A DNA stretch of 64,000 nt from Escherichia coli (GTDB lineage Bacteria; Pseudomonadota; Gammaproteobacteria; Enterobacterales; Enterobacteriaceae). Below, one piece after another: positions 60,546 to 61,464 of the stretch (position 1 is the first letter of the stretch; each line of letters starts with the position of its first letter). Under the pieces are notes generated by a model. That model ran no database searches. It had not been told where the DNA came from and worked only from the letters and a program-made list of their open reading frames with translations. The translations under genes were made by a program, and so were the position numbers. Location: assembly GCF_048403405.1 (NCBI RefSeq), contig NZ_CP183129.1. One strand, written 5' to 3'.

Positions 60546-60596
60546 AAAACCAACGGGCGTGCCATACGCCCGTTTCAATACTTAACGCACATGTGT
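60546..60596. repeat. ~50-bp copy of the icd-downstream terminator module
   Basis: aaaaccaacgggcgtgccatacgcccgtttcaatacttaacgcacatgtg is ~88% identical to 61408-61460. Confidence 0.6.
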
Positions 60597-61038
60597 TTTG
60601 GTTTAGTCATCATCCGGTTATATGTATTTTAGCCAGGAATGGGTTAAACCATTCCTATATAACTAAAAAATTGAAACCTTATTCTCATGTCATGCTTATA
60701 TTCGTCATTATCGTTATATAAAAAGGCCAACCATAATGTTTAGCAAATTGGCACAAAGTAGTATAAAGGCTATGTTTTAATTACAGGATGTTCAGTCATT
60801 TGAATGTATAACATTTTAGCTAAACAAATCTAAAACGAAGTGAATAATTTAATGTTTTCACTAAATCTCATTTTGTTTAATATCTATTGAGATTTCTTGC
60901 TTTAAATTTTGCTTTATATAAACAATGGTTTTAATTTTTGATTAATTTGTTTTTTGGGGAGTAATATACACATATGCAAAGTCAAGAAATGAACATCCAA
61001 ATGAACTATATTAAGCACCGTGGGATAAGACATAACAA

Positions 61039-61362
61039 ATGAAGTGGATAGTAATTGACACGATAATTCAACCTACATGCGGCATATCTTTTTCAGCCAT
61101 ATGGGGTGATATGAAAATGATCATCTGGTATCAATCTACTATATTTCTCCCTCCTGGCAGTATATTTAAACCGGTTAAATCTGGTATTATCTTTAAGGAT
61201 AAAGAATACCCTATTACTATTTATAATATCGCACCATTCAACAAGGATTTATGGATTTTACTCAAAAGCAGTCAAGAGTGTCCTCCAGGAGAAAGCGAAA
61301 TAACAAATAAATGTTTACATAATAGTTGTATTATAAAAATATGCCCATATGGACTCAAGTAA
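61039..61362 (+). CDS. iraM: anti-adaptor protein IraM (RpoS stabiliser)
   Basis: 107-aa product [39 protein letters not shown]...; strongly AT-rich. Confidence 0.9.
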
Positions 61363-61411
61363 TGGGCTTCATATAAATATGCTCGACATGCTATTAATAA
61401 TATCCACATAA

Positions 61412-61450
61412 ATAAAACAACGGGCGTGTTATACGCCCGTTTCATTATTT
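61412..61450. terminator. bidirectional rho-independent terminator between iraM and icd
   Basis: acgggcgt-gttat-acgcccgt hairpin with T-runs on both strands, immediately after the icd stop. Confidence 0.7.
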
Positions 61451-61464
61451 AACACATGTAGAGA

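Follow-up and report, generated by a model that had tools for sequence, protein, structure and literature searches.

That phages attach at icd, that the presence of iraM varies among strains and that genes of the IraM family are carried horizontally is already known, and the locus studied here gives these facts a concrete form: how did iraM come to lie beside icd, and what are the two copies of one short sequence between which it is enclosed? IraM is an anti-adaptor that is induced by PhoP and stabilises RpoS. The locus is from Escherichia coli, and the stretch of DNA analysed, called the window throughout, is 64,000 nucleotides long; gene names follow the RefSeq annotation of strain TUM14771, to which the right end of the window is 100% identical. 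The genes bluF, bluR (58980-59711), ycgX, ymgL, ymgK and iraM follow one another on the plus strand, and icd comes next on the minus strand. An earlier reading, made from the sequence alone, had proposed that iraM arrived by an old insertion at the 3' flank of icd and that the two copies, here called L and R, are the target sequence duplicated by that insertion. The features of the region are as follows.

59932..60336, plus strand: ycgX (DUF1398), an open reading frame and annotated gene matching phrog_413 (E=1.5e-41)
60389..60499, plus strand: ymgL, a small annotated open reading frame, within a 248-nt block (~60381-60628) missing in the EC42405-type haplotype
60500..60545, no strand assigned: apparent decayed e14-type integrase arm-site region with degenerate TTTTGATAA repeats, adjoining L and aligned in register with e14-type arms
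60546..60598, minus strand: L, a displaced and eroding copy of the icd 3'-UTR and terminator, from the repeat alignment and terminator-like on the minus strand
60599..61038, plus strand: AT-rich 5' island remnant with ymgK (60736-60780) and the region upstream of iraM, from the GC profile and annotation
60975..61010, plus strand: stub of an ariR/ymgB-like gene, its first ~35 nt, from comparison with the wlxctx60/GF4-3 haplotype
61039..61362, plus strand: iraM (anti-adaptor), an open reading frame and annotated gene matching phrog_4407 (E=1.9e-49)
61363..61411, no strand assigned: 3' flank of iraM, ending at an AAAAC junction with R and without arm-site similarity
61412..61464, minus strand: R, the resident icd 3'-UTR and intrinsic terminator, conserved after icd in relatives
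61465..62715, minus strand: icd, intact, 416 aa, without an e14 or phage 21 prophage (open reading frame, annotation)

A repeat search finds the pair as a direct repeat of 43 nt (60547-60589 and 61414-61456), 86% identical without gaps and with a spacing of 867, and when two small indels are allowed the homology extends from ATAAAAC to ACATGT, giving L at ~60546-60598 and R at ~61412-61464, with 44 of 48 ungapped columns identical, four mismatches and two indel events. The sequence-only reading had thus placed two near-identical copies in the same orientation correctly within a few bases. A pattern for the 26-nt core, with up to three mismatches, has exactly two sites in the 64 kb, L and R, and two matches to it appear in none of 100 dinucleotide shuffles. 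The claim that the enclosed segment is strongly AT-rich is borne out as well, the 0.8 kb between L and R having a GC content of 29.9% against 48.3% for the window, with 50.5% for icd. The repeat search shows no inverted repeats at the ends of the insert and there is no transposase among the open reading frames of the window; a target-site duplication by a transposon or insertion sequence was rejected, the repeat being 52 bp long where 2-14 bp would be expected and lacking both terminal inverted repeats and a transposase. An 8-bp inverted repeat (AGGAATGG gttaaa CCATTCCT) does lie just inside the island, at 60645-60666, where homology with the EC42405-type haplotype starts, and some strains (JCH8249, GPEC464) carry IS200C insertions within the ycgX-iraM-icd interval. 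At the other side, ycgX is a phage-type gene that forms the left edge of the island region, and the prophage-derived region, ycgX included, probably reaches left to the gap between bluR and ycgX; the family phrog_413 is labelled 'head protein'.

What the repeated module is can be read from its position and its distribution. R starts 5 nt past the icd stop codon and is predicted to form a G+C-rich stem of 9-10 bp with a GTTTTATTTA tail (z=-5.2), so that the hairpin, the U-tract and the location just past a stop codon that characterise an intrinsic terminator are all found in R by prediction. On the minus strand, which is the icd-sense strand, both L and R are predicted to form a G+C-rich hairpin of 9-10 bp followed by a run of T, and on the plus, iraM-sense strand R is again terminator-like by prediction, with a weaker T-run. 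R is therefore a predicted bidirectional terminator, which would end iraM transcription too. In a scan for the hairpin covering one genome per bacterial species, E. albertii, E. whittamii, Escherichia sp. E1V33, three Citrobacter and an E. coli-like contig each have the module once, and in all of them it comes straight after icd; in unrelated taxa the matches cover the hairpin only. The single copy after icd in the relatives identifies the module as the conserved icd 3'-UTR with its intrinsic terminator.

Across 5426 complete E. coli genomes the module has a median of 2 and a maximum of 4 copies per genome, and every copy that was inspected lies at icd or within a prophage integrated at icd. 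One genome with three copies has L, R together with a 168-nt icdC, and a third copy on a lambdoid prophage. Among the stretches in IMG/VR that bear the hairpin, all 43 fall into four contexts: the L flank, the iraM flank, the phage 21 arm and the e14 arm. The sequence-only reading had named membership in a widespread repeat family as the result that would overturn it, and the counts speak otherwise: a dispersed family of the REP, BIME or ERIC kind was rejected, with two copies in the window, at most four per genome, all in icd contexts, and one per other species, after icd. As a known RNA family the module was likewise rejected, Rfam giving sub-threshold matches only (for example tpke11, E=0.018, 24.7 bits against a gathering score of 43).

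The two copies have not been preserved equally. The stem is perfect in every R allele seen, whereas that of L is damaged in several lineages: in K-12 it contains a mismatch, while B1 and others have G-U pairs in it. L also has derived states of its own (the loop GCCA, TCAATAC and AACGCAC), changes that are specific to L and common to all occupied haplotypes. Constraint on L is relaxed, which befits a relic. The loop reads GTTAT in R and usually GCCAT in L, and the L of the wlxctx60/GF4-3 haplotype, with GCTAT, is intermediate. All fixed differences between L and R lie to the right of the left stem arm, and over the left ~19 nt the K-12-type L is the same as R. The right-hand halves of the modules are mosaic and are paired with varying left flanks, which points to frequent recombination within the module and the icd 3' end.

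The link between a duplicated icd terminator and phage integration is supplied by the phages that use icd as their attachment site. Phage 21 and its relatives share window positions 61412-61628, which take in the terminator and the final ~165 nt of icd, and this homology begins exactly at the left edge of R; in the phage 21 annotation the order is xis, int, arm sites P1-P3, terminator, icd'. Elements of this kind carry the end of icd and its terminator, so each integration at icd adds a copy of the module. The view of icd as a phage attachment hotspot taken in the sequence-only reading is in keeping with this, the module standing beside the arm sites of the icd-integrating phages. Two classes of arm site, each in three repeats, stand beside the terminator: TTTTGGGGAA in phage 21, D2, ev207 and E. 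albertii, and TTTTGATAA in the e14 attL of K-12, contig L028, Citrobacter, a prophage-derived record and strain EC42405. The 45 nt to the left of L (60500-60545) can be aligned in register, in degenerate form, with the e14 class, a modest similarity in that 124-196 of 5000 shuffles reach the flank-only local score; flank alignment shows that the left flank of R resembles neither class. On this sequence comparison L gives the impression of being the terminator copy from an old left junction of e14 type.

The iraM locus resembles the e14/phage 21 system in several respects: the site is the same, the terminator unit is the same, the apparent arm repeats beside L are modestly similar to the e14 class, and integration of e14 or phage 21 adds a direct-repeat copy of the module in K-12 and in strain N3. 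There are also differences. Genuine events duplicate ~217 bp, made up of 168 nt from icd and the terminator, leave a 168-nt icdC and keep int and xis, whereas the iraM locus has 52 bp, no icd' and no integrase. Alignment shows no icd-like sequence to the right of L, and tblastn gives a single Icd match in the window; a hidden icd' remnant at this point was considered and dropped, there being no signal beyond a few short matches seen by eye, which are not significant. Searches by tblastn with IntE and Int21 give no match, either across the window or within the first 11 kb of the EC42405 locus, and there is no excisionase among the open reading frames of the L-R segment. That the sequence to the right of L (~44 nt) is phage DNA from beyond icd' was also rejected, as it occurs in none of e14, phage 21, D2 and the N1 prophage. 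We have accordingly filed the iraM locus as a degraded relative of the e14/21 junction pair and not as a member, with the icd' duplication and the integrase missing. The joint between L and the island, without the 168 nt of icd that genuine events leave, is the weak point of the account, favoured below, in which decayed integrations were stacked at icd.

A different explanation, in essence the sequence-only reading taken strictly, is that one site-specific integration of the Campbell type used the icd terminator itself as attB, an element with an attP like the 52-bp terminator recombining in or next to the hairpin, so that L and R are attL and attR, and that the element later shrank to the iraM stump. 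Such an event would explain the missing icd' beside L, the sharp ends of the direct repeats coincide with a functional unit, an allele with a single copy exists, the fixed differences between L and R are one-sided as if attP and attB had differed on one side of the crossover, and the hairpin arms and loop have, as read from the sequence, the geometry of a recombinase core site. Yet no integrase is present, no element bounded only by the module has been seen, and the prophages inspected here use a site internal to icd and leave icdC; in EC42405 iraM lies without flanking modules and with a terminator of its own; and the intermediate loop GCTAT in one form of L suggests that L moved away step by step from an R-like copy and did not begin as an already different attP. 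We consider a single integration of this kind unlikely, though it is the main rival. A bolder version, in which the terminator hairpin is the attachment site of an unrecognised recombinase and the L/R pair still switches iraM between lineages, we regard as rather improbable; if true, a terminator-targeting switch would have toggled iraM, and with it the control of RpoS under Mg2+ starvation, among E. coli lineages.

Other icd neighbourhoods are varied. The O157 strain 180-PT54 has a prophage with xis and int directly beside icd, and by Megablast it has no ycgX-ymgL-iraM region anywhere in its genome. In Escherichia sp. E1V33 (L036, 217-1700) the neighbours of icd are ycgN and a YebC/YeeN-like gene, and the ~17 kb between icd and ycgN in the e14-less E. 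coli N3 (bluRF, ycgZ-ymgABC, minCDE and others) are rearranged or absent. The 3' end of the window icd (61465-61632) has clustered changes, at nt 1204 and nt 1216-1218, relative to B2, E. albertii, E. whittamii and Citrobacter, and its protein ends in ...IIKNM where E. albertii and Citrobacter have ...IIENM. The cluster would fit a past replacement by a phage-borne icd' copy. Over the last 168 nt of icd the divergence from B2 is 3.6% against 1.8%, which as a trace of replacement is suggestive only.

The content of the island likewise points to phages. IraM matches the phage family phrog_4407 (E=1.9e-49), and Stx2 phages have homologues of 60-67% identity as morons on the opposite strand, placed between stx2B and nanS-p, so that IraM is a member of a phage moron family. 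Its likeness to morons, taking the iraM-like gene downstream of stx2AB and the iraL of CFT073, extends to membership in the same protein family at 60-72% identity (PMC4045071), the paralogue iraL being located on the potB island of CFT073 (PMC4045071), and to the EC42405 iraM, which keeps a terminator resembling those of the phage copies. Unlike the morons, the locus has a different upstream region and DNA homology that is confined to the coding sequence, ending where that sequence ends, and most E. coli iraM genes borrow the icd terminator. The non-coding DNA of the iraM region has no phage, plasmid or IMG/VR homologue outside this locus; the plasmid matches that might have indicated a donor for it were rejected as mislabelled pieces of chromosome. 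In precomputed annotation IraM and its homologues carry Pfam PF11183 ('PmrD'), and a fresh Pfam-A scan of the window IraM returns no family even at E<=10. PmrD is a PhoP-activated connector.

The iraM of K-12 has been described as 'found on the e14 prophage' (PMC4045071). In the window iraM adjoins an intact icd with neither e14 nor an integrase, which places the gene outside e14, contrary to that statement. The region immediately upstream of iraM holds a further gene in some genomes: a paralogue of ariR/ymgB is present there in 30 of 5426, intact in some (L183:2514-2768; L184:1179-1439). The cluster ycgZ-ymgA-ariR lies a few kb off, and the locus collects small proteins that bind regulators.

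Two rarer haplotypes show what the island may have held. The wlxctx60/GF4-3 type (11 genomes) has the same L-island-R layout as the window and is diverged by 13-36% from the ycgX stop codon through the island, with bluR and ycgX 98.5-99.3% identical. Just upstream of iraM it has ~430 extra bp encoding an ariR/ymgB-like protein, and in GF4-3 this gene is intact, with a product of 84 aa that matches Pfam YmgB (PF10798, E=1.3e-15) and shares 38% identity with AriR. Relative to this haplotype the window would have lost the ~430 bp, leaving the ariR-like stub.

The EC42405 type (19 genomes) is organised differently. After ycgX and ~55 nt of shared flank it has the island non-coding region, an ariR-like gene (86 aa), iraM and a hairpin, T2, and then trkG, remnants of insertion sequences, a gene for a hypothetical protein of 454 aa, a well-preserved e14-type arm, one module and icd. 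The island non-coding region is 71% identical to that of the window, from ~60643 on, and iraM is 79% identical in nucleotides and 70% in amino acids; no ymgL, arm or L follows ycgX, window ~60381-60628 being missing. The stem of T2, GCCCCT/AGGGGC, recurs in the terminators behind the phage-borne iraM homologues, where its distance from the stop codon is also the same. In EC42405 the iraM-icd interval is 6.9 kb long (2012-8870 of L184), with trkG, IS5 and IS100 remnants and the 454-aa protein, which has a weak match to a phage family (phrog_11707, E=2.6e-9); in K-12, trkG is a gene of the Rac prophage. The allele shows that an iraM gene may lack modules on either side and have a phage-type terminator of its own. 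The contact between iraM and R in the window looks secondary, perhaps the product of a deletion between CAAAAAC microhomologies. The iraM 3' flanks of the two types are collinear with a similarity that is not significant, the EC42405 flank running into T2, and the ancestor one would propose, with L and the 6.9-kb trkG segment together, is absent from the 5426 genomes, among which the iraM-trkG spacer occurs only in the 19 of the EC42405 type. The idea that the pair is a target duplication made by the insertion of the iraM piece is not borne out by these results, with no integrase, no icd' beside L and an iraM-R junction that appears secondary. What survives of the proposed old insertion at the icd 3' flank is a decayed island with an IraM of a phage family; an insertion of 0.8 kb as such does not emerge.

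The sequence-only reading had suggested a look at genomes that lack iraM, and these indeed have exactly one module directly after icd. In 1037 genomes the order is ycgX, ymgL, arm, one module and icd, exactly 867 bp shorter and without iraM, and the insert is present in 3936 E. coli genomes. The single-module strains include CFT073, UTI89, 536, S88, APEC O1, Nissle 1917, ATCC 25922 and the type strain, which are classic B2; the absence of iraM from CFT073 has already been published (PMC4045071). Over the 215 nt to the left of L, B2 differs from the occupied haplotypes by 5.6-7.4%, the same as these differ among themselves, and the occupied wlxctx60 haplotype differs from all others by 15-18%. 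The non-coding DNA of the island agrees, haplotypes of the common type being 5-8% apart from each other and 19% from the wlxctx60 type, and every empty allele seen shares one private SNP in the flank. Judging from these divergences, it is quite likely that the site was already occupied when B2 and the common haplotypes parted and that a single recombination between L and R then removed the segment from B2; this direction comes from midpoint rooting of a short and fast-evolving region with no true outgroup, because other Escherichia have no ycgX and bluR beside icd. Indeed ycgX, bluR and iraM are absent beside icd in the other Escherichia and in the Citrobacter loci, and the sampled clusters of BluR, YcgX and IraM contain only E. 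coli and Shigella. The argument that the empty allele is ancestral since its module is R-like was rejected, as a crossover in the left ~19 nt gives the same product. The single-copy allele, which under the sequence-only reading would be the state before insertion, is thus more readily understood, from the flank divergence, as the result of a later deletion between L and R.

Two further explanations dispense with an integrase at the locus altogether, and both are less likely than the single site-specific integration discussed above. According to one, homology-facilitated illegitimate recombination introduced a fragment consisting of the icd 3' end, terminator and iraM, anchored in icd by homology and joined at its far end at ACATGT, while the terminator of the recipient was kept as L. 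The right end of the repeat at the 6-nt palindrome ACATGT, the absence of icd' beside L and the absence of an integrase would all be explained in this manner, the mosaic modules show that recombination there is frequent, and the private changes at nt 1204 and 1216-1218 of the window icd are in its favour. No donor with icd, module and iraM followed by something other than L is found in E. coli genomes, phages, plasmids or IMG/VR, however, and the scheme needs an iraM that already lay beside the module in the donor, so that the problem is only moved; we think it rather improbable.

According to the other, the event was local and independent of phages: either slippage or break repair at the palindrome doubled the terminator in tandem and foreign DNA was captured between the copies, or the ycgX-icd interval was duplicated in tandem and reciprocal deletions followed. 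Palindromes are fragile sites, which speaks for such an origin, and the structure can formally be derived from the EC42405 allele by one duplication and two deletions. The repeat, however, reaches well past the palindrome on both sides, and the apparent arm relic ties L to an integrase-type site. In the tandem-duplication model the sequence to the right of L should repeat the 3' flank of ycgX, and ymgL should lie in an e14 pre-arm region; neither comparison shows significant similarity. A purely local origin appears very unlikely.

The history toward which we lean, with moderate confidence, is that L and R are copies of the icd terminator left by a decayed phage-derived island stacked at the icd site, and that a deletion between L and R followed later in B2. 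What the module is and where it occurs, the relic of an arm beside L, the series of alleles and the phage affinity of IraM are observed; the order of events, the deletion junctions and the direction of the B2 change are inferred, and run as follows. Elements of the e14/phage 21 type, integrating at icd, would have brought the last ~165 nt of icd and the terminator beside their arm sites. An old e14-type junction would have left the arm and L, which was then pushed outward and began to erode, and a later island, with the ariR-like gene, the iraM moron with its own terminator and more besides, would have lain between L and a new copy, R, now the putative working terminator of icd and, on the opposite strand, of iraM. 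Internal deletions may then have removed most of the island, one of them fusing the iraM 3' flank to R and another taking most of the ariR-like gene, and deletions specific to lineages would have produced the common, EC42405 and B2 alleles; in the ancestor of B2, recombination between L and R would have deleted 867 bp and left one module. As for the missing icd fragment at the L-island joint, a deletion at ACATGT microhomologies (the motif occurs twice around the icd stop codon) could have removed it, which is conjecture.

So reconstructed, the locus is akin to the genomic islands at the 3' ends of tRNA genes, where the target regains its functional 3' element through a short direct repeat, AT-rich cargo decays, and the repeats allow precise loss; it differs from them in that the target is the terminator of a protein gene, the island is down to 0.8 kb and no integrase is found. 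The iraM locus would then be an ordinary genomic-island scar, calling for no new kind of mechanism, and iraM would have a structural history, as what is left of an older phage-type island that had been stacked on the icd attachment site, in which it once travelled with an ariR-like connector gene. The absence of iraM in B2, which comprises uropathogenic and neonatal-meningitis lineages, corresponds to an exact 867-bp event between icd terminator copies, probably a loss, and the alleles of the locus offer a simple marker by PCR or sequence. Literature searches directed at other points turned up no account of the pair as a doubled icd terminator, of the arm relic next to L, of the two deeper haplotypes with their ariR-like partner, or of the exact L x R event that underlies the B2 allele. 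More generally, serial integrations at one att site may leave nested copies of a terminator that later drive the loss of genes.
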